DNA of 64,000 nucleotides from assembly GCF_026210795.1 (NCBI RefSeq), contig NC_089432.1:4278001-4342000 (forward strand). Reading direction: 5' to 3'. Below the pieces are notes generated by a model. That model saw only the letters and a program-made list of their open reading frames with translations. It did not search any database and had not been told where the DNA came from. Shown here in pieces: positions 1-50,984 of this stretch. The stretch is from Rhizophagus irregularis (Eukaryota). How positions within the stretch are numbered: position 1 is the first letter of the stretch; the number at the start of each line of letters is the position of its first letter. Both the position numbers and the translations under genes were made by a program.

Positions 1-1071
1 TTTTAACATACTCATCAGGAGTATCAGTAACAATAGTTTCTCTAAGACCTTGTGAAATTTCCAAAGCTAAACCAATATCATATTGTTTACCTTCAACATA
101 AAAAGGAGGTTGTCCACTAGAAATCTCCCATAATAATACGCCTAAACTGTAAATATCACTTTTTTCATTTAATGAGTATACTTGTGTTGATTGGTTGTTA
201 TTCCTCAGTCTACTAAAACTTTTTGGATCAACATAAGGAACCACTTCAAATAATTTAGATTGAAAATTGGATGATGCTCCAATTCTTTTAGATAATCCAA
301 AATCTGCTAATTTGATTGTATCATCACGGACAAGTATATTACAGGAGCGCTATTTAAGAAACATGTATATTCAAATAAGTAATACAAATATATTCATATT
401 AATGGTCAAATAATATTAAGTGAATTACCAGATCATTATGCAATATTCCTTCGTTATATAAGCATGATACAGCACAAGATAACTGGTATGCTATATTATA
501 TTTGTCATTCCAAGTAAGCTTGTTAAAATTTTCCTTCAAATAATTTCTAAGGCTACCACCGTTGGCGTATTCCATTACTAACCAATAATCATTATGATTA
601 TCTAACGAATAAAATACTTATTAAGTTTATTAAGTCCAATTCTTTGAATTTTGCGATTTACAATAATATTATATTTATTAAGATAACTTTAATAATACCT
701 GACTCGAGTTTTGTTATTCCATAGCAACGAATAAAGTTATCATGAAAATTAACTTCATGTTGAATTTTTAACTAAATAATATTTTTTAAATTAGTATATT
801 AGACAAAATCATAGACGAAAAAAATTATTTCATATTAAATTACCTCACGAACGATTTCTTTCACAGTGATTTTATTAAGACTAAAAAAAGATTTTAACGC
901 AAATTGCTCTCCTGAATTTTTCCAATTTGCATGATATACGTTTCCAAATTCTCCAGTACCAATATGTTGAATATTATTAAATTGTTTGTATTCATATGAC
1001 TTAAAATGCTCTTTATCCACAACTTCTTCAATCAAATTAACCCATTCATTTGTATGTTCGGTATCTTGCAT
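1..1071 (-). CDS. TKL-family protein kinase, 5' part (runs off window start); paralog of the kinase-Sel1 genes at 25587 and 38707
   Basis: ATG at 1071 (MQDTEHTNEWVNLIEE). Motifs across spliced exons: IGTGEFGNVY, FALK, YWLVMEYANGGSL, ILHNDL|RSCNIL, LADFG, SDIYSLGVLLWEISSG. Intron positions match the two paralogs. Confidence 0.85.
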
Positions 1072-1199
1072 TTTGATATTATTGGACGTTACTGAACGAA
1101 TTGAATAATGATAAGTTAACAGTAAAGTTAGAAAAAAATGAAAAGTAAAAATTATTAAAGTTTTATTTGTGTGCCTATTATATATATATTTTTTTTTCA

Positions 1200-1310
1200 A
1201 TGATAGTCGTACAAACGCACAGCGTGATTTAGTATTACCTGTTACAGCCAATCAACATGGTACCGCAGTTACCGCAGTAATTTCATTTACAAGTATAATG
1301 ACGTCATCAT
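1200..1310 (-). promoter_or_regulatory. Conserved upstream block of the kinase-Sel1 paralogs, with a CRE-like TGACGTCA palindrome
   Basis: TGACGTCA at 1299-1306 followed by GAAATTACTGCG and TGATTG. The same order occurs at 25350-25410 (+) and 38870-38928 (-). Confidence 0.5.
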
Positions 1311-2650: not shown

Positions 2651-5611
2651 ATGGACCAATGTATTGAAGGTAGCTGAAATATTTTTTTATTTATAAACAA
2701 TTCATGTTTAATATCTTACATAATTCAACTAATTACATTCTTAATTTAAAAAACTAGATTGTAAGTAGTATATATAATTTACAGTAAATACTTTTATATT
2801 ATCTTTATATTTAACTAATTAATAATTAATAATACTACAGGGTGTAAGTTATATGATATCTATATTTGTATTATTTATATAATTTAAACTAACTAATTTC
2901 TTTATTTAAAAAATTATTTTGTAATTTATTTTAGTTGGTAAGCCATCATAGTAATTTATTTATTTAATTATATCATTACTTATTGTTATAATATTTATAT
3001 ATAATTTAAACTATATAATTTCTTTATTTAAAAAATTATTTTGTAGATGGTAAGTTATTTATTTAATTCTATTATTACTTATTGTTATAATATTTATATA
3101 TAATTTAAACTAGTATCTAATCTCTTTATTTAAAAAATTATTAAATAATATAGCGTGTAAGTTATTTATTTAATTCTATTATTACTTATTGTTATAATAT
3201 TTACATATAATTTAAACTATCTAATTTCTTTATTTATTTAATAGAACGTAAGTAATAAATTATTTGTTTAATTCTATTATTACTTATTATTATAATATTT
3301 ACATATAATTTAAACTGTCTAATTTTTTTATTTAGGGAGTAAGTTATTTATTTAATTCTATTATTACTCATTGTTATAATATTTACATATAATTTAAACT
3401 ATCTAATTTCTTTATTTAAAAAATTATTAAATAATATAGTTCGTAAGTTATTTATTTAATTCTATTATTACTTATTGTTATAATATTTACATATGATTTA
3501 AACTATCTAATTTCTTTATTTAAAAAATTATTTCGTAGAAGGTAAGTTATTTATTTAATTCTATTATTACTTAATGTTATAATATTTACATATGATTTAA
3601 ACTATCTAATTTCTCTATTTAAAAAGTTATTAAATAATATAGTGTGTAAGTTATTTATTTAATTCTATTATTACTTAATGTTATAATATTTACATATGAT
3701 TTAAACTATCTAATTTCTTTATTTAGGGAGTAAGTTATTTATTTAATTCTATTATTACTTATTGTTATAATATTTACATATAATTTAAACTATCTAATTT
3801 CTTTATTTAGGGAGTAAGTTATTTATTTAATTCTATTATTACTTATTGTTATAATATTTACATATAATTTAAACTATCTAATTTCTTTATTTAGGGAGTA
3901 AGTTATTTATTTAATTCTATTATTACTTATTGTTATAATATTTACATATAATTTAAACTATCTAATTTCTTTATTTAAAAAATTATTTCGTAGATGGTAA
4001 GTTATTTATTTAATCCTATTATTACTTATTGTTATAATATTTACATATAATTTAAACTATCTTTAAAAAATTATTAAGATCTAGCTTGTAAGTATCTCTA
4101 TTGTTATATATTTATATAATATTTATTTGTTAATTGAATTCTTTTATTTAAAAAATTCTGTTACTTTAGTTGGTAAGTTGTAAATTATAGGTTATTATGT
4201 ATTTATCCAAAAACTAAGACTTATATTACATTAAATTCCTATTTAAATTTTAGAGTAAGTAATAATTTATTTTAGTGTAAATTATAATACAATCTATAAT
4301 ATAATTTTAATTATTTAAATTTATAGATTTGGGGGAAGTGGAAACACAATTATAGATGATTTTATTCTTGAAAAAAAATTAAGATGGATTCCTTATAACA
4401 AATTTAAAAATGTTGAATATCTTAATGAAGGAGGATTTGGTACTATATACAAAGCTATTTGGTTAAAGAATTATGGAGGTGAAGAAGAAGTAATTCTTAA
4501 ATGTCACAAGAATTTAAATGAAAATTTAAATGAATTTTTGAAAGAAGTATGATAGATTGATAGTATATTATTTTTTATTTTTATAATTTATATTAATAAA
4601 TTATTATTAATTTTTGTAGTGGGACTATCATAAGAATTGTTTAAATTCATCATATGAAATTGTAAATTTTTATGGATTTACAAAAGATCCAAAGATTTCA
4701 AAATATATAGTAGTAATGGCTTATGCAAATAATGGTAATTTAAGAGAAAATTTAACAAGAATAGTCAAAAATAATTGGAATCAAAAATTATATATGTTGT
4801 ACAGAATTATTGCTGGACTTAGTAAGATACATGAAAAAAATCTTATTCATTGTGATTTTCATGATGGTAATATTTTAAATCATAATGAGAGTGTACTTTA
4901 TATTAGTGATTTAGGATTATGTCAACCTGTAAAATCGGTTTTGGAAAAGTATGATATTTATGGTGTTATACCATTTATGGCTCCTGAAGTTTTAAGAGGT
5001 AAATCTTATACTCCAGCTAGTGATATATATAGTTTTTCTATGATTATGTGGGAACTTACATCTGGAGTACCACCATTTAATAATAGAGCACATGACATTC
5101 AACTAAGTTTAAGTATTTGTAAAGATGGTGAACGTCCTGAAATTATTGAAAATGCTCCACAATGTTATGTAGATTTAATGAAAAGATGTTGGAATGAAGA
5201 TCCATTAAAAAGACCATCTTCTAAAGAAGTATTAGAAATTATTAATAAATGGATTTTCCGTTCTAATGAAGTCAATGATGAATTAAAAAGCAACATTATG
5301 GAATTTATAAATGCACCAATTAGGCAGTATAACAATCTTGTTACTCAACCTCATCCTAAAGCATGTTATACAAGTCGCTTACTTAATTTTACTAGTAAAA
5401 AATTGAATGAAATTATTGAAAGTGAAGATTCACAAGCTAATGTAGAAGCAAATGAAATACTAGTAAGTGAAAATTTGAATGATTATATAATTAAGGATTT
5501 GGGGTCATTAGGTATGTATTATGATATATAAAAAATTAATCTTGCAAATTATTTATGTGAAATTAATTTTATTTAATATTTAATTTAGATATTAAAACAG
5601 ATGAAAATTAA
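2651..5611 (+). CDS. TKL-family protein kinase with a micro-exon-encoded N-terminus
   Basis: Predicted exons: 2651-2669 (MDQCIE), 16 three-nt exons and a one-nt exon (2758-4254), 4327-4546 (FGGSGNTIIDDFI..WIPY..EGGFGTIYKA..VILK), 4620-5511 (HCDFHDGNIL, SDLG, APE, SDIYSFSMIMWE), and 5589-5611 ending in TAA. The kinase core has no stops. Confidence 0.8.
2670..4326 (+). repeat. Tandem array of intron plus micro-exon units (18 introns, 72-109 nt)
   Basis: Unit consensus GTAAGTTATTTATTTAATTCTATTATTACTTATTGTTATAATATTTACATATAATTTAAACTATCTAATTTCTTTATT(..)TAG. Sixteen junctions read AG-NNN-GTAAG and one reads AG-A-GTAAG. The core copies at 3050-4084 are nearly identical. Confidence 0.9.
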
Positions 5612-25586: not shown

Positions 25587-27866
25587 ATGCAAGATACCGA
25601 GAATACAAATGAATGGGTTAATTGGATTGAGGAAGTTGTTGATAAAGAATATTTTAAATTTTATGAATACAAACAATTTAATAATATTCAATATATTGGT
25701 ACCGGAGGTTTTGGAAAAGTATATCGTGCAAATTATAAAAATTCAGGAAAACTATTTGCGTTAAAATCTTTTTTAAATCTTAATAACATCACAGTGAAAG
25801 AGATTGTTCGTGAGGTAATTTAATATAAAATACATTCTTTTTCGTTTATGATTTTGTTATAATATAACATTTTAAAAAATTTGAATTTTATTTTAGTTAA
25901 AAATTCAACGTGAAGTTGATTTTCATGATAAAATTATTCGTTGCTACAGAATGACAAAACTTGAGTCAGGTATCATTAAGTTACCTTAATAAATAGTATA
26001 ATATTCTTTTAATCGCAAAATCGCCAAATATATTTTATTAATTATTCCTTTTAATCATTAGAAGATTATAATAATTATTGGGTAGTAATGGAATACGCCG
26101 ATGGTGGTAGTCTTCGAAACTATTTAAAGAAAAACTTTAAAAAGCTTACTTGGGACGACAAATATAGTATGGCATACCAGTTATCTTGTGCCATATTATG
26201 TTTACATAACGAAGGAATAGTGCATCGTGATTAGTATTATTTGTCCGTTTAATAATAATATTATGCTTGTATTACCTACTTATTTGAATTTATATATGTT
26301 TCTTTAATAGCACTCCTGTAATATACTAGTCTGTAATAACACAATCAAGTTAGCAGATTTTGGATTACCAAAAAGAATTGGAGCATCCAATTTTCAATCT
26401 AAATTATTTGGGATGGTCCCTTATGTCGACCCAAAAAGCTTTAGTGGACAAAGTAATAATAATAACCAATCCACACAATTGTACTTATTAAATGAAAATA
26501 GTGATATTTACAGTGTTGGAGTATTATTATGGGAGATATCTAGCGGACAACCTCCTTTTTATGTTGAAGGTGAACAATATGAAATTGGCTTAGCTTTAGA
26601 AATTTCACAAGGTCTTAGAGAAACTGTTGTTCCTAATACTCCTGAAGAATATGTAAAAATATATACTAGTGAGTAAAATTTTAGATTTTATATTTTTATA
26701 ATTTGAATATTATTTTAACTAGTTTTGAATTACATTTATTTCTAGAATGTTGGGATGGAGAACCAGATAATCGTCCAAAAATATATCAAGTTGTTGATTG
26801 GCTAAATGCAATAATTACAAAATCAGATGTAATCATAGAAAACCAACAAATTTCAAATGAACGAGAACTTAATGAGGCTTCTATAAGTAATAATGATTCA
26901 GTATTACAAGTAGAATTATCTCAACTTATTCAAAATTTTGATAAAATAAATATAAAAGAAATTGATCCTATGATAATATTAAGTAAACAAAAAAATTTTC
27001 TAATTGAAGATTTTAACATTATAATTGATGTAATAAATGATTTTATTATTAAATTAAATAATAAAGGGCTAGAATGGAAAGCAGAAAAGCAGAAAACTAT
27101 TGAATATTTTAATAATCATAATTTAGATTCACAAGAAATTTATAATTGGTTGTTAGACAATCAAAATAGTTTAAATCCTATTTTTATTCTTGGATATTTT
27201 AATTATTATGGAATTGTAACAAGTGAAGATAATGAGAAAGCATTTAATTTGTTCATTAATGCGTCAGAAAAAAATCATATATTAGCACAATACTTTGTTG
27301 GTGAATGTTATTTTTATGGAAATGGGACTATAAAAAATGAAAAATTAGCTTACAAATACTATAAGAAAGTAGCTAATAAAAATTTATCAAGTGGACAATT
27401 AAATATTGGTTGTTGTTATGATTATGGAATGGGTATTAAAAAAGATTTAAAAGAGGCATTTTATTGGTATGAAAAAGCTGCAAATAATGGAAATATAACG
27501 GCAATGTACAATCTCGGCCTTAATTATAAAGACGAAAAAGGCGTTAAAAAAGATTATGATAAAGCTTTTGAGTTATTTAAACAATCAGCTAAAGGAGGGT
27601 ATTTGGGTGGAATAATGATGTTAGGATATTGTTATAATAAGGGTATTGGAACTAAAATTGATAAGCAAAAAGCATTTGAATTTTATCAAAATGCTGCAAA
27701 TTTAGGACATAATGGTGCACAAAATAATCTTGCTATAATGTTTCAATTAGGAGATGGGATTGCAAAAGATATAGATAAAGCGATTTATTGGTATAAAAAG
27801 TCTGCTGAACAAGGATATGAATTAGCAAACAATAATTTAATAAAGCTTCAGAATAGTTTATTTTAA
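25587..27866 (+). pseudogene. TKL kinase plus Sel1-repeat protein, probably inactivated
   Basis: GTGGFGKVY, FALK, DFG, and Sel1 repeats (YWYEKAA, AQNNLA). At the catalytic-loop exon end it reads CAT CGT GAT TAG (26232-26234), where the paralogs have HxDL|gt, giving a stop or frameshift. Confidence 0.8.
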
Positions 27867-31725: not shown

Positions 31726-33334
31726 CCGGGCGTAGTTGCTTCTGATATTGCTAGTTAAACATAAGTAGTATTTGACATTAATGGATTTGGATGTGTATCA
31801 TCTTGAAGTTTGTTTCTTGAACCATTTTCGTTTGAATGATTTTCATTTTTTGATGATTTTACTTCCATTTTTAAATATTCAATGTAACTGACTTTACCTT
31901 TTTCAATGAATTCAATTAAACTAAAAAAAAGTAATTACACCTTTTCAAGTTTTTAATCTTTTCATCCTTTTTGTCTAATTCCTTTTCCAGCTTTCTATTT
32001 TCATGAAACCTTTTATAATAAAAAAAAGTGTAAAATAAAAATCCATTATCCAATTATAAAAAATAACACAAATTATTTTTTTGAGAATGAGTTTTTGAGT
32101 CGCTATAATATCATTTTTTATTTCGAGGTAAAATTTTTTTAACCATGATTTTTAGGTGTAAAATGAAAAATATCTAGTTTGAGGAATAACTTGTCAACAA
32201 AACTTTTATCCCTGATTATATTAAAAGAAATTAAATGTTTTACATTAAAATAAAATTAATAAGTTGTAAAGAGAATTCAAGTATTATTAAAAGAAAATCA
32301 GGATGGTAGTCAACTTTACAGTATAGTCTAACATAAATTGTCTTATAACATGTAACAGTTGTAACACCTCTTTTATAAGATTGTGTAAAAGATGTAATTT
32401 AACTTATTAAAATTCTGAAATGATATTGGTTAGTGATTTTGACGGACTGATATACAGTCTAATTATACCTTTTATGTCAAATATTTTTTTTTTACTGATT
32501 TTATTGATGCGCGGTTTAAATTGTTATATAGTAACAAAATAATATGTAACGCGTCTCCACAAGTGATGACTCATAATTAATAAAGATTGAAGTTTAACTA
32601 CTTTAACTTATTAAAATATTGGTTGGTGATTTATATACAGTTTAATTATACCTTTTATGTGCAGTATAAACAATAGACTATTTTTTACTATTTTTCCATT
32701 TTTGCAAGTCCGCAAGAGTTGATTACAATATTAGTATAATTTATACTTTTTATATGAAAAGCTTGTGCAACAAAAAAAAATATTTATATAGTCCTTTTTT
32801 CTTTTTTTTTTATTACACATCCTCTTATTCCAAACATCCTTCTATTCCACACATACACATCCACTTATTTTTTTCCTCCTTTAGAGAAAGGTAACAAACT
32901 TTTTTCGCGCAAATAAATATTTTTGTTTTTTTTTTACGCGAAAAAAATAATATTCTTCCTTTCTATTATTCTTGAGAAAGGTAACAAACTTTTTTTTGCG
33001 CAAATAAATATTCTTATTTTTTTATTGCGCAAAGAAATAAATATTCTTTCCGCAAATATTTTTATTTTCATATATGTATTTTTTTTATCCATTTAAATAA
33101 ATATTTTTTTTTTTTACACAAATAATTATCTAGGGTATACCATTTATTCCAAGATCAGGACAACAAATGTTGAACAATAAATAAGTATTACTCCTAATAT
33201 GATCAACACAGAGATAAAGTCTAGAAAGGTGAGAAACGTTAGACTAGACTAACCTACTCAAGAAGTCAACCAAAGGATAACATCTCCAAATCATTGTCAT
33301 CAAGACCCAGGTTCTATAACAAAATCAACTGGAA

Positions 33335-34468
33335 TTTATTTATCACATTTAGTACATTTGGTGAGTTATTGTGTTTAAATTTAAAAAGTTTGGGCTTTAA
33401 TTGCAATGAAGGCTTTTTTACGATTTAGTTCATGGGTCTGCTCACGTATGTATATGTCTAAGGTTTTCCAAACTTGCTTAGGCTTATTTGTCGGGATTCT
33501 TTGTGAGTCTAGATGAAATCTGGTATATGTGCCTGAGTAAGCGTGAATGAGCATTCTGATATCAGCCTAGTAATTCAATAACTCATTTATCCGAGTGATC
33601 ATAGGATAACCTTTCTCTTTAATCTAGATTATTATTTTCCTTGCGCAAGAAATCGGATTTAATTTAATTTATCACATGTGGTACATTTGGTGAGTTGTTG
33701 TGTTTAAATTTAAAAAGTTTGGGCTTTAATTGCAATGAAGGCTTTTTTACGATTTAGTTCATGGGTCTGCTCACGTATGTATATGTCTAAGGTTTTCCAA
33801 ACTTGCTTATGCTTATTTGTCGGGATTCTTTGTGAGTCTAGATGAAATCTGGTATATGTGCCTGAGTAAGCGTGAATGAGCGTTCTGATATCAGCCTAGT
33901 AATTTAATAACTCATTTATCCGAGTGATCATAGGATAACCTTTCTCTTTAATCTAGATTATTATTCTCCTTGCGCAAGAAATCGGATTTAATTTAATTTA
34001 TCACATGTGGTACATTTGGTGAGTTGTTGTGTTTAAATTTAAAAAATTTGGGCTTTAATTGCAATGAAGGCTTTTTTACGATTCAGTTCATGGGTCTGCT
34101 CACGTATGTATATGTCTAAGGTTTTCCAAATTTGCTTATGCTTATTTGTCGGGATTCTTTGTGAGTCTAGATGAAATCTGGTATATGTGCCTGAGTAAGC
34201 GTGGATGAGCGTTCTGATATCAGCCTAGTAATTCAACAACTCATTTATCTGAGTGATCATAGGATAACCTTTCTCTTTATTTCTAGGTTATTATCATCAA
34301 GATCCAGGTTTTCTGTATTTATCAATTCTATTGATATATTTTTCTAATATTAATTTTATTATCAAGACCAAGGTCTCCTTACACAAGAAATCCATAACAA
34401 AATCAACGAATTTATTTATCACATTTGGTACATTTGGTGAGTTATTTTGTTTAAATTTAAAAAGTTTG
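33335..34468. repeat. 329-bp tandem repeat, about 3 copies plus a partial fourth start
   Basis: The anchor CATTTGGTGAGTT has its GG at 33360, 33689, 34018 and 34436. The copies are nearly identical. Confidence 0.95.
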
Positions 34469-36396: not shown

Positions 36397-38707
36397 TTAT
36401 AATTCAATGATTGAAGGAAAATTATCATGAATTACTATTTGATTATTTTGAAGTGATTTATATTTATCTTGTGCATCTAGATCTCCTTGTTTGGCAGATT
36501 TTTCATACCAATAAATTGCTTTACCTATATCTTTTGTAATTCCATTTCCTTCTTCATACATTAAAGCAAGATTATATTGTGCTATAACATCCCCTAAATT
36601 TGCAGCACTATGATATAATTCAAATGCTTTTTTCTTATCAATTTTAGTACCAATACCATTACTATAACAATATCCTAACATAATTATTCCATCTGAATAT
36701 CCTCCTTCAGCTGATTTATTATATAAATCAAAAGCTTTATTAAAATTTTTTTCAACAACAATTCCATTTTCATAAAATCTACTAAGATTATATATAGCTA
36801 TAATATTATCATTATTTGCAGCTTTTTCATACCAATAAAAAGCTTTTTGATAATCTATATCAACTCCTATTCCTTTTTCATAAAAATAACCCATTTCTAA
36901 TTGCCCACTTGAAAAATTTTCATTAGCCACTTTTTCATAATATTCAAATGCTAATTTTTCATTTTTTATAGTTCCATATCCATAACTATAACAATAACCA
37001 ACAAAAAGATGTGCTATTATATGATTTCTTTGTGATGCATTAATAAACAAGTTAAATGCTTTCTCATTATTTTCACTTGTTACAATTCCATAATAATTAA
37101 AATACCCAAGAATAAAAATAGAATTTGAACTATTTTGATTATCTAATAACCAACTATAAATTTCTTGAGAATTTATATTATAATTATTAAAATATTCAAT
37201 AACTTGTTGTTTTGCTTTAAGTCCTTTATTTTTTAATATAAAAATAAAATCATCTATTTCATCAATTATAATGTTAAAATCTTCAATTGGAAAATTTTCT
37301 TCTTTACTTAGTATTAAAATAGGATCAATTTCTTTTATATTTAATTTATCAAAATTTTGAATAGGTTGAAATAAATCTACTTGTAAATTTGAATTATTAG
37401 TACTTAAAGAAGCCTCATTAATTTCTTGTTCATTTAGTATTTGATCATTTTCTACTATTACATCTGTTTTTGTCATTATGGCATTAAGCCAATCAACCAC
37501 TTGATATATTGTTGGTCGATTATCAGGCTCATCATCCCAACATTCTAAAGAACCATATATAATTAAAGATTAATAAAAATAGTATTTAATTTAAGAATTT
37601 TAAATTTAAAATATTACTTACTGGTATAGATTTTGATATATTTTTCAGGAGTACCAGGAACAATAGTTTCTCTAAGACCTTGTGAAATTTCCAAAGCGAA
37701 ATCAATATCAAATTGTTTATCTTCATCATAAAAAGGAGGTCGCCCACTAGATATCTCCCATAATAATACGCCTAAACTATAAATATCACTTTTTTCATTC
37801 AATGAGCATATTTGTGTTGATTGATTGTTATTATTTCTTTGTCCACTAAAGCTTTTTGGATCAATATAAGGAACCATCCCAAATAATTTAGATTGAAAAT
37901 TGGATGATTCACCAATTCTTTTTGATAATCCGAAATCCGCTAATTTGATTGCATTATTATGGATCAATATATTATAGGAGTGCTATTAAAGAAACATATG
38001 TATATTCAAATGAGTAATACAGGTATAATATTATTATTAATCAAATAATGTTAAATTAATTACCAAATCACGATGCACAATTCCCGTGTTATGTAAGTGC
38101 GATACAGCACTAGATAACTGATATGCCAAATTATACTTGTCATCCCACGTAAGCCTATTAAAATTTTCTTTCAAATAACTTCGAAGAGTACCACTATTAG
38201 CATATTCCATTACTAGCTGGTAATTATTATGATTTTCTAATTAATAAAAAAAAAATAATTAATAAAATGAACTTTGTGAAATTTTTCAATCAAAAGAATA
38301 GTTATATTTATTAAGGTGACTTTTATAAATACCTGACTCAAGTTTTGTTATTCCATAGCAACGAATAATATTATCATGAAAATCAACTTCGTGTTGAATT
38401 TTTAACTGAATAAAATATAAAAATATTTGAAATAAATATATTAGATAAAATTTATAGACGAAAAAAAATGTATTATACATTAAAATACCTCACGAACGAT
38501 TTCTTTCATGGTGATATTATCAAGACTAAAAAAAGATTTTAACGCAAATTGCTTTTCTGAATTTTTCCAATTTGCACGAAATACTTTTCCGTAACCTCCA
38601 GTACCAATATGTTGAATATTATCAAATTCTTTATATTCATATGATTTAAAATATTCTTTATCCACTGATTCCTCAATCCAATTAACCCATTCATTTGTAT
38701 CTTGCAT
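36397..38707 (-). CDS. TKL kinase plus Sel1-repeat protein, apparently intact, 5 exons
   Basis: GTGGYGKVF, FALK, GIVHRDL|HSYNIL, LADFG, SDIYSLGVLLWE, CWD, and multiple Sel1 repeats. Canonical GT-AG introns. Confidence 0.9.
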
Positions 38708-46250: not shown

Positions 46251-48707
46251 TAATTTTTTATAATTAATACCAGTAAATATAACTTTGTTTGGATCTCCAA
46301 AAAATTCCGACAAACCATAGTAATATCGACAGCCAACACCAAAATCCTAATAAATGCAAATTCCGATTGAATCAGACTGGGATGAGTTTGAGATTAGTTA
46401 ATTTTTTAATGCAATTGTTTCTAATTTCTGATCTGGTAATATACTGTACGTAGTCCTTTTAATTAAAATAAAAATTTTTTCTTTTATTTTTATTAATAAA
46501 TATAGTAATGTTAGTAAATTTGCATTAATTAAATTAATTAATACTAATCAAATAATTCAAAATAATATTGGATAATTAAGACACGTTACTACGCCGCTGC
46601 ATTTTTAAAATTAAGTGATTAATTGGAAATTTATAAAATATATACAATTTTTTTTTTTAAAAAAAAAAACTTTGGGATTTTGACTATCAAGAAATTTAAC
46701 TGTCAGGATTTGTGACTATCAGGATTTTGTTTCAACTAGAATTTGGACTTATCGTGATTTTTTGTGTCAACGTAGACTGTCGATATTATGGTTATGGCAA
46801 TCCCGTGCCATATTATATAAGATTTGCAACCAAAAAGAAAAATTATTAAAATTACTTGCAAGGACACATTCCAAATTTCCTCGGTTTGTCAATTGCATAA
46901 TTAATCATCATAAATTCTTTAATTAGTTATTCAATAGAATTTTAAATAAGCAATACTATCATTAAAATAAATATTTCAAACCATTTTAATTTATAAAAGC
47001 TTAAGTCATTAAGTTGTAGTAATAAATCTTTTTATTTTCAACAAATAAGAGTAAATATTCCTATCATTATAAATTGTATTCTCAATAAATTCATCAAAAT
47101 CATTATTCCAACTGGTTTATCCTTCAAGACCTTAATGTGTAAGGTGGATCGGACTAACATTATGAATATGTCAAATTTGTAAGAAAGGAGTTTCATGTTT
47201 GTTTAGTTTTAATTAGCGTGCTTATTAATATATATTGATTATTCGTTGATTTAATGAAAGATCAATGAGAATAAAAAAGGAAAATCAATTTTCTATATCA
47301 CAAACATTTTAAACAAGACTTTTTTAAGTTAAATAATTATTATATAGATATTAGCTTTTTTTTTGTGGCAAAATTTGCAAAAATTTGTTAAAAAGTTGGC
47401 TCTACGTGTCTGTTAAACTTAGGATAGCATATAAAATCCTAATAAAGATGCATTACAGTTTTTTTTAAAAAAAAAAAAAAAAAAAAAAATTTGTTAAAAA
47501 AAAATTTTCAAGTATTGATAAACTCATAATATAATGAAAGAGAAAATATATTTATGTAGGGAACCATGTGATTGGACGATCTACATCATGTTAAACGGTC
47601 AGTTTATTGCGCCATTCATTAAAAAAAGAGTTAAAATGAAGTAATTTTTTAAGATTAAAAAATTTTGATAATCGCAATTTGTATTAGGATCAACAACTTT
47701 TATAGTGTTAGCGATAGTTTTACATAATCTCATAAAGAAAAACGTAAGAAAAAAAATATAATAAAAAAATTAATGGAAAAAATTAGCAAAATAAAAAAAT
47801 AAATTGAAGAAACAGAAATAGTAAATAATAATTATTGTACTAATAAATTTTATAACGTTAAAATTGAGTTTTCTTATAGCAAACTTTTAAAAAAAAAAGT
47901 TTTTTAAATATTAAGAATAATAAGAATTATTTTTAATGCTTAAATTCTTATAGGCATTAAAATGAGTATATCTTATTAATTGACCAATAAAATTAATAAT
48001 ATAAACGTATATAAAAGCGGACGTGACGCACATGTCGTATATAGACGCTTCCCTTCAATAAATACCCGATATATCATAATGTTTTAAATGGAAAACTTAT
48101 AAATTATAGAAGATTTTTTCATATCAGAGGAGCAATTTATTATAAGTTAAACTTTTTATAAAAGTTAAACATTCGACTTTTGATTATTTTTAGATAGTCA
48201 TTAGTCATCCTTAACAAAGAAATATTATGAATATTTTTTATATTACAATTTTAACATATATAATGTTATTTTATTCTTCTATCAATCCTATGTAAAATCC
48301 AAATTTATAATTAAATTTGTCTAATGTATACTTAATAGTTACACTATTTACGATCATCGTTATTTGTTAAATGATCTTGAGTCTTTAGACAAATAATATT
48401 TTTTTTTTTGTTTTTTTTTTGAAATCCTTTAAATAAATGGTAAAGTTGGATTAATTAATTAAAATCAAAAATCAAAGTTTAAATAAAAAATTATCGTACT
48501 TTTTGTCAAAGTCAAAATTAAATTTTTTGATGCATTGGAAAAAAATTTTTCCCTAACAATGCAAATCATTTGACTAGACTAATTAGGGTTGAGTACAGGA
48601 GTACATACGCAGTCATTGTTACACATGGTTGACTTTATAAGTAGACCGTTCCGAATTTTTTTTTAAAAATTTAAAATTTAAAAAAATTTACAATAAAATA
48701 TTTCATT

Positions 48708-50984
48708 ATGTCTGTTATTAGAGAAGATTTAATTTATACTACACTTAATAAAGCATATGCACTAACGGATTATAATATTCACAATGATATGTACAAAAAA
48801 ACTGAATTTCGAAAAAAAACAATTCTTGCTGATGAATCACTTACAAAAGATGAAAAATCTGAAGCAATAAGAATTTTGACTGCAACTTATGATAAATATA
48901 AAATTATTTATAATTCAGGAACAAGAAGAGTTTGTGAAAATTGTAACCAAAAATGTTTAGCTACATTATATTGTGAATATTGTGTTCGAAATTATTTAAA
49001 AAATAATTTTTCAAATTGGACATCCGGAAATGATGATATTGATAATTTAATACAAAAATGTCAGATGAGTACATTTGACCCGAATGTCATAGTTGAATGG
49101 ATTCCATATAATAATTTAAAAAATATTAAATATTTAACAAAAGGTGGATATTCTGAAATTTATACAGCAGAATGGATTGATGGTCATTTTATTGAATGGG
49201 ATTCTAATCAACAACAATTAAAAAGATTTGGAGAGCAGTATGTAGTACTTAAAAGATTAGAAAATGTTGAAAGTGCAAATAAAAGTTGGTTTGAAGAGGT
49301 TTGTAGTCTAAAAATGGTAGTAATTTTTCATTTAAAATTTTTTATAATATATTCTTTATTTTATAGGCTAATTCGCATTTAAATATATGTAATAAATGGT
49401 CAGATGCGATTGTCCAATGTTTTGGTTTAACAAAAGATCCATTAAATGGAGTTTATATGCTTGTAATGAATCAATTTGATATAGATTTAAGAAACTATTT
49501 ACAACAAAATCATAGTCAACTTACATGGAAAGAAAGAATTCAAATTGCTGTTGTCATAATTAATGCACTTTCACGGGTTCATGAAGAGAATGCGATTCAT
49601 AGAGATTTGCATTCTGGAAACATACTATTTAAAACTAAATTTAATATTAGTGATCTTGGATTTTGTGGACCTGCAGATAAACCATTAAAGAGTGTATATG
49701 GAAATCTTCCTTACATTGCACCAGAAGTTATTGCAGGAAAAGTAACTACTTTTAAATCTGATATTTATAGTATTGGCATACTTATGTGGGAAATTTCATC
49801 TGGACAACCACCATTTATTAATTACGAACATAATTATGATCTTGCTATGTATATTATTAATGGTATAAGACCAAAAATTGTATCAGGAACTCCTTTAGAA
49901 TATAAAAATTTAATGAAACAATGTTGGGATGCTGATCCATCAAAAAGACCTGATATTAATACACTTGATAATAAAATAAGAGAAATTAATTTATTTTATC
50001 AAACTAAATCAAATGAATCATTAACTCAACCAGAAGAAAATAATAATTCTGAAATGGAAAATCATACTAGCAGTAGCAAAGTATTTACAAGTATCAGTAA
50101 ACTTCATCAATTTGATAATCTTCCTAAACCAAGAAATGCAACAGAAGGTATTATTGAAATTTGTTATTTGATTTTTAATATATGGTTGATATTAATAATT
50201 AAAATCTTACCTTTTTAATTAAATAATAATGCAGAAGAACAAGAAGGTATAAATTAAACATTATAATTTTATATATATTTTTTATTTTAAAATAATTAAA
50301 TAATAAATTATTTTTCTTTTATTAGCATTTCACAGTAATAAATCATACAACTTTCATATTCCCAATAACAGTATGTATATTAGATTTATGTTAATATAAT
50401 AAGATACTTTATTTGATTTATTTTTATCTATCATTAGTTGATGATTTTGATAAGTTGAATAATCAGAAGAATAGTTCAAAAATAATTGGCATTTTTAAAG
50501 GTAATTATAAAACATATTTAATAGTATTTCCTTTAGATGATCAAATAAATTAATATTAATATTTTAAACTTTTTAGCTAGTACTGAAGAATCATTAAAAG
50601 GGAATTCAAAAAATGGCAAGTAGAATGATTAATATTATCAATTTAATTGTTTGATATTGAACATAACATTATTTTAATTTTTAGTTATTCAAGAAACAAT
50701 GCAACAACAAATAAAAAAATATCATGATGATATTGACGGTATAATATAATTATTTAAACTGATTATAATAATTATGATAATAATTAATTTAATACTTTCT
50801 AAATAATTATTTTATTTGTAGATGATGAAATTCATAATAATCCAAATCTTCACTCGGAAGAACAAGACGAATTGGAACTTCCGGATAGTAAGGATTCTTT
50901 ATTTTTAAATTTGAAATTTTTAATTAATTTAAAAAATCACTACTAAAGTCTTTTTTTAATAATTTTTTAGATATAGATAATTAA
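48708..50984 (+). CDS. TKL kinase with an N-terminal CxxC-CxxC region and a multi-exon acidic tail
   Basis: Exons 48708-49298, 49367-50147, 50235-50246, 50326-50370, 50438-50500, 50577-50615 (GC donor), 50685-50738, 50822-50887, 50971-50984. Motifs WTSGN..ID, KGGYSEIY, VVLK, HRDLHSGN, SDLG, APE. Confidence 0.9.

Follow-up and report, generated by a model that had tools for sequence, protein, structure and literature searches.

Codon-sized microexons were reportedly described by Iotti et al. in 2012 in the expanded nank family of Tuber melanosporum. The 3-bp microexons of this NACHT-ankyrin family are alternatively spliced according to those portions of three papers that treat them (PMC4986451, PMC3689799, PMC10197012). 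Other minute exons are recorded in parts of several further sources, including 13 one-nt and 27 three-nt exons in Coprinopsis cinerea (PMC12230235), a single-nucleotide exon in Arabidopsis (PMC4674806) and the micro-exon genes (MEGs) of Schistosoma mansoni (PMC10526429), and exon skipping is described as low in fungi in a portion of one paper (PMC6142364). For Rhizophagus irregularis, genome papers report a high-copy kinase repertoire of 2,533 members (PMC10234402) and strain-specific accessory genes (PMC8647823); their parts on the kinase expansion make no mention of microexons. A literature search whose scope ended at subscription papers and supplements found no report of one-codon exon arrays in arbuscular mycorrhizal fungi.

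We identified such an array in R. irregularis, within a 64,000-nt stretch of DNA (contig NC_089432.1) that was analysed as a whole and is referred to here as the window (Table 1). A 19-nt coding start and a kinase domain enclose sixteen three-nt exons, all at their expected places. A sequence-only reading of this DNA had given the translation on full inclusion and, in doing so, had used a further exon, the single nucleotide A4254, without naming it. Each three-nt exon is preceded directly by AG and followed directly by GTAAG (16/16), and the introns separating micro-exons measure 72–109 nt. Within the array bounds, set by the donor at 2670 and the acceptor before 4327, the 16 occurrences of AG-NNN-GTAAG compare with a mean of 0.03 and a maximum of 1 in 500 dinucleotide shuffles, which is far above chance, and YAG-NNN-GTAAG had no match in the rest of the window on either strand. 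The AAG exon has a peculiar context (TAG-AAG-GTAAG, 3537–3546) in which its own AG abuts the donor; judged from these letters, the site is a possible zero-length exon or recursive splice point, which would drop AAG without true skipping.

Table 1. Features of the micro-exon kinase gene, in window coordinates
Feature	Position	Strand	Evidence
Coding part of exon 1, 19 nt, ending in phase 1; 5' UTR upstream	2651–2669	+	Translation; donor 2669 in RNA joints
Sixteen 3-nt micro-exons	2758–4172	+	Motif scan; splicing of the ATT and TGT-to-TTG exons in reads
Micro-exons 1–8 (starts)	2758 ATT, 2841 GGT, 2935 TTG, 3047 ATG, 3154 CGT, 3245 AAC, 3336 GGA, 3440 TTC	+	
Micro-exons 9–16 (starts)	3539 AAG, 3643 TGT, 3727 GGA, 3811 GGA, 3895 GGA, 3994 ATG, 4085 CTT, 4170 TTG	+	
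Tandem repeat of intron plus micro-exon units, period 84–107 nt, near-identical intron core, three acceptor types	2950–4062	+	
Split stop at codon 12 on full inclusion, T3156 (end of CGT exon) plus AA3245–3246 (start of AAC exon)	3156–3246	+	Computed from DNA, not in a read
9-nt form of the 15th micro-exon, upstream AG, in frame, two additional residues	4079–4087	+	Two X23 reads, letter-identical to the window exons
Single-nucleotide exon A, required by the kinase frame	4254	+	Translation; joint 4254–4327 in RNA
First large exon: SGN helix, Gly-rich loop, catalytic Lys region	4327–4546	+	Intron 4547–4619 spliced in reads
Main kinase exon, open, PF07714/PF00069	4620–5511	+	100% identical to a public R. 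irregularis protein
Last coding exon with normal stop (codon 401)	5589–5611	+	Same C-terminus in public models P0121 and P0122

The closest known case is that of the codon-sized microexons of Tuber nank genes, as far as the cited portions describe them. Both involve a mycorrhizal fungus with an expanded gene family whose members carry 3-nt exons one after another, and both are read as a diversification device. In both, many such exons are spliced consecutively (16 here, and an inferred 19–47 in 11 paralog models), and the family is large and variable (761 relatives at E ≤ 1e-60 and 159 in another search, with differing exon strings in reads). However, the host protein here is a kinase and not an NLR-like NACHT-ankyrin protein (Pfam finds kinase families only, PF07714 and PF00069, with E 5e-35 and 3e-33), the array stands at the N-terminus, is read in phase 1 and has a 1-nt exon at its end, and the fungus belongs to another subphylum. 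Skipping is reported in the portions on nank, whereas here, with few reads of the locus, one alternative acceptor and no skip were seen. Like the minute exons described in parts of the Coprinopsis and Arabidopsis reports, these exons of 1–3 nt are spliced and break gene models when missed, but instead of about one per gene there are 17 in a row, tandem-duplicated and hypervariable. MEGs, as portrayed in part of their source, also use many short exons to make variable proteins in a gene superfamily; unlike this gene, they encode secreted proteins from exons of 3–81 nt with long introns. The MEG definition asks for a coding sequence made mostly of micro-exons, and here micro-exons account for 49 of 1203 coding bases, placed ahead of a kinase and separated by introns of 72–109 nt.

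The encoded protein has a Gly-rich loop, a catalytic Lys and HxD, DxG and APE motifs, by which it is a predicted kinase belonging to the expanded R. irregularis Ser/Thr/Tyr (TKL-type) kinases, that is, to the high-copy repertoire mentioned above, in which public models miss or misread the array. All named relatives among the 120 listed were from Rhizophagus. We fetched 280 related protein records, 103 of which contained an FGxSGN-type motif, with 'SK' in front of it in 33 of the 103, likely a product of misreading the 1-nt exon; the spliced ending seen in RNA occurred in 0 of the 280. Eleven paralog models, which appear to have entered a wrong frame by misreading the same exon, contained 19–47 residues resembling micro-exon strings in the exon frame, 316 of 348 being I, L, M, V, G or R. 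These strings were chosen by eye from wrong-frame models (P0074 was dropped as mixed) and leave the third base of each exon unfixed. The public paralog model P0065 begins with the same five residues as exon 1. An additional acidic, EEFEGSG-like repeat segment, absent here, lies between the start and the array position in P0008, P0037, P0045, P0058, P0065, P0072, P0076 and P0294. Another record, P0123 from a different isolate, reads as if it lacked one G where the first large exon begins and is otherwise identical over its 112 residues, which may reflect a frameshift allele or a homopolymer error. Among 80 short proteins, none was a transcript-derived N-terminus.

A metagenome scan yielded six loci, three of which (L001–L003) contained the 3' end of the array and none a complete array. 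The sequence TTTAG-A-GTAAGT around the 1-nt exon was invariant in the window and in L001–L003, the loci whose DNA reaches this site (62–89% protein identity). In L003, the acceptor of the last three-nt exon has decayed (no AG, at about 150–250) and the 1-nt exon is intact. The repeat pattern had no match in prokaryote genomes and viral contigs.

The kinase sets the reading phase of the array: its frame calls for two bases ahead of 4327, namely the last base of TTG 4170 and A4254; hence every upstream three-nt exon is read as its last base plus the first two bases of the next exon, whatever the start. Such hybrid codons had been proposed from the sequence, and both the kinase frame and the translation confirm them. 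Exon 1 had likewise been assigned 19 nt and phase 1, which holds for its coding part from ATG 2651, the only ATG of 13 in 2301–2670 that reaches the donor without a stop; it also matches the frame imposed by the kinase. We rejected a different phase of the start exon, once held out as an alternative, because the kinase frame sets phase 1 regardless of the start, and also the phase-0 reading of public models, since the 1-nt exon was seen in RNA.

When all exons are included, the translation reproduces the TAA predicted earlier from T3156 and AA3245–3246, and only two of the 16 single skips, those of CGT and of AAC, open the frame, again as predicted. This stop is the one lesion in the coding sequence of this copy, which ends normally at codon 401. 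Re-initiation was rejected, as the next in-frame Met is residue 129, which comes after both the Gly-rich loop (57) and the region of the catalytic Lys (78). Rescue by an alternative acceptor at CGT or AAC was also rejected; there is no other AG within 40 nt upstream. The proposal that a T-ending exon must not precede an AA-starting one is correct (six ordered exon pairs form a stop) but too narrow: five exons end in T in such a way that TAA also arises when they are placed before the 1-nt exon, and TTG 4170 can for this reason not be skipped.

Splicing was analyzed in three poly(A) runs filed under the same species label, with about 25% of each run read. The isolate behind the RNA differs from the window in some letters (at 5105, T in 1305 of 1305 reads), and most aligned reads come from sister genes; those without the paralog letter at 4334 numbered 25 of 346 in one read alignment and 7 of 84 in another. 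Two of 328 X23 reads matched the array letter-identically, joining TGT 3643, GGA, GGA, GGA, ATG, the 9-nt exon 4079–4087, TTG, the 1-nt exon and 4327. The last eight micro-exons, the 1-nt exon included, thus appear in order and without a skip in both reads, with CTT in its 9-nt form via the upstream AG; the motif site of a three-nt CTT exon is present, but these reads use the longer form instead. The two reads may represent one molecule, and they are splicing intermediates in which the intron upstream of TGT is retained. For one molecule with five skippable exons, the probability of seeing no skip is 0.03 at 50% inclusion and 0.59 at 90%. Exon 1, ATT and GGT were joined in two reads, and the joint 4254–4327 was found in four X23 reads, six X24 reads and one X10 contig. 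This locus, or a near-identical one, is transcribed. Eleven reads joined 2669 to 4327 (6/328 and 5/325); they are given without intervening letters and may be paralogs. None of the reads listed crossed the CGT-AAC junction, and no micro-exon skip was present among the read strings listed.

Sister-gene strings share the opening ATT, GGT and the closing CTT, TTG, A with this array and have different triplets in the middle. Hand reading in phase 1 shows them to be open, with Asp, His, Trp, Tyr, Ala and Arg abundant, an openness subject to bias, as decay of stop-bearing RNA would remove other strings. In two runs, loose-end consensus strings kept register over at least six triplets (behind 2669, from 31 and 51 reads; before 4336, from 53 and 64), suggesting one main isoform in the dominant paralogs; loose-end agreement was 0.66–0.87, and mixed paralogs also explain such low values. 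Several X23 and X24 poly(A) reads over 2670–4326 were partly spliced, with micro-exons joined beside a retained intron, a sign that the array may be spliced slowly or incompletely. In one X23 sister-gene read with a joint from 2669 to 3908, exon 1 and a retained intron are 17 letters apart, a number not divisible by three; this read might contain a 2-nt exon or come from a frameshifted paralog. Near the C-terminus, paralog reads used a donor at the position of 5421 and carried seven inserted letters ahead of 5589, which might be a further small exon.

Taken together, we favor, with a probability of roughly 0.55, a real one-codon exon array that writes a short, variable N-terminal peptide throughout an expanded Rhizophagus kinase family, with inclusion likely the default, the stop likely accidental and this copy a null or weak allele. 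Variation would arise mainly at the DNA level, and full-length kinase from this copy would come only from minority transcripts that skip CGT or AAC, computed as 9–17% open transcripts at 90–95% inclusion per exon. Several observations count against this reading: the CGT-AAC junction is uncrossed by the listed reads, the two matching reads are intermediates and perhaps a single molecule, the RNA isolate differs from the window and most of its reads are paralogous, and the kinase exons have no other lesion at a locus that, itself or in near-identical form, is transcribed. The alternative splicing described in parts of the nank papers also speaks against it, and favors a combinatorial scheme of the Tuber type, in which skips are frequent, many isoforms are open, stop-bearing forms are tolerated waste, and the allele is functional and its stop without a role. 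By computation, 32,376 of 65,536 exon subsets are open and would encode 15,154 distinct peptides, and the intact kinase exons, the use of an alternative acceptor here and the modest loose-end agreement fit such a scheme as well. It is nevertheless only a tentative alternative, considering that the listed read strings contain no skip, the two matching reads are all-inclusive, the consensus register is kept and the low agreement is equally explained by mixed paralogs.

Near-identical repeats are hard to assemble, and P0123 shows that records of the locus differ, so the stop could stem from misassembly or a wrong base call, or exist in one culture only, with a different base or another unit between CGT and AAC in the true allele. 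This is very improbable, as the last eight exons, the three identical GGA units among them, have the same order and copy number in the reads, and a public protein matches the kinase exon at 100% identity.

The sequence-only reading had gone further and proposed that skipping is obligatory if the gene is functional and that stop-forming neighbors act as a built-in on/off or NMD filter. The first statement is logically true for this allele; however, no listed read contains a skip, the two matching reads include every exon in their span, and fungi are reported to skip exons rarely (PMC6142364). A selected filter, in which selection preserves the stop-forming pair and leaves skipped transcripts as the only productive ones, would agree with a real stop that either skip removes and with the otherwise intact gene. 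It is a poor candidate, given the lack of skips in the listed reads, the phase-1 openness of expressed paralog strings (hand-read, and biased if stop-bearing RNA decays) and the scarcity of AA-starting exons in paralogs (3 of 348). Moreover, a stop arises by chance in 45% of reshuffled exon orders with fixed ends, and 6 of 144 point changes create one. Neither obligatory skipping nor an NMD filter is supported for this copy. A recently inactivated allele, the other option offered at the time, fits somewhat better than a filter, with no listed read over the CGT-AAC junction.

Of the 16 exons here, 2 start with AA, against 3 of the 348 counted over 11 annotated paralog strings (p = 0.017), a difference that speaks for the favored reading, whereas AA and GA starts together show no excess (2/16 versus 22/348, p = 0.28), a point against the favored reading. 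In paralogs, harmless exon starts are as rare as AA, and the rarity of AA therefore need not mean selection against stops. The AAG unit has two sister units that carry ATG, so one-base changes to AA-starts do occur in the array.

Comparison of 12 units revealed a difference of 0.753 per site in exons and 0.056 in introns (13-fold), with 4.67 versus 0.27 parsimony steps per column. Within acceptor types, there were 4 changes in 9 exon columns and 22 in 278 intron columns (p = 0.008, on small numbers). Exon differences between types may be old variants reshuffled via the shared intron core and not new mutations; this and the choice of paralog strings by eye weaken the favored reading. One could also view the array as a neutral satellite that grows by slippage of its intron plus exon units, within an N-terminus that is disordered and free of selection, the strings being functionless. 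The three GGA units are indeed identical, forming perfect and recent repeats, the kinase exon has a dN/dS of 0.84–1.14 against L001–L003 (uncorrected for AT bias, a value that does not separate the rival explanations), and an acceptor has decayed in L003. Yet we regard neutrality as unlikely: it does not predict exon bases varying far above the flanking intron bases, both splice sites are kept in 16 of 16 units, the 1-nt exon is conserved, as are the ends of the array, and no stop was found in three related kinase exons, where about 3–4 each would be expected without selection.

Under the favored reading of a variable peptide, unequal crossing-over or conversion within the near-identical intron cores would duplicate, remove and exchange units, and point mutations would also alter exon bases. 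As each codon spans two exons, any of these events would rewrite up to two residues and sometimes make a stop. The array directly precedes the SGN helix, a place that in another kinase of the window (48675–49382) is taken by a Cys-motif module, and from this matching position we predict that the variable peptide serves as a surface for selecting partners or ligands. A broader and rather speculative version would be a receptor-like kinase repertoire in arbuscular mycorrhizal fungi, in which 16 to approximately 47 phase-1 one-codon exons form an N-terminal recognition peptide, intron recombination and combinatorial skipping together generate diversity (up to approximately 15,000 open peptides here), and junction stops act as a grammar limiting neighbors, some alleles working only via skipped isoforms.

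That kinases have expanded in arbuscular mycorrhizal fungi is well known, though unexplained. In one branch of this expansion, 3-nt exons together with a conserved 1-nt exon encode a hidden, hypervariable N-terminal peptide that is missed or placed in a wrong frame in the public models examined. The array offers a testable handle on how these kinases diversify between isolates and a natural system for a spliceosome that faces 17 tiny exons in succession, and it places codon-sized exon arrays in a second fungal lineage after Tuber. The stop is of lesser weight than the array and is probably a cost of its phase-1 design.

The window contains four additional kinase genes, at 1–1251 (minus strand), 26311–27866 (plus), 36397–37982 (minus) and 48675–50218 (plus), none of which had a micro-exon array by motif scan. 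Two of the four are followed by Sel1-type-like repeats (labelled by eye). A tandem repeat of 329 nt, with 2.9 copies and 97% matches, was also observed at 33333–34294.
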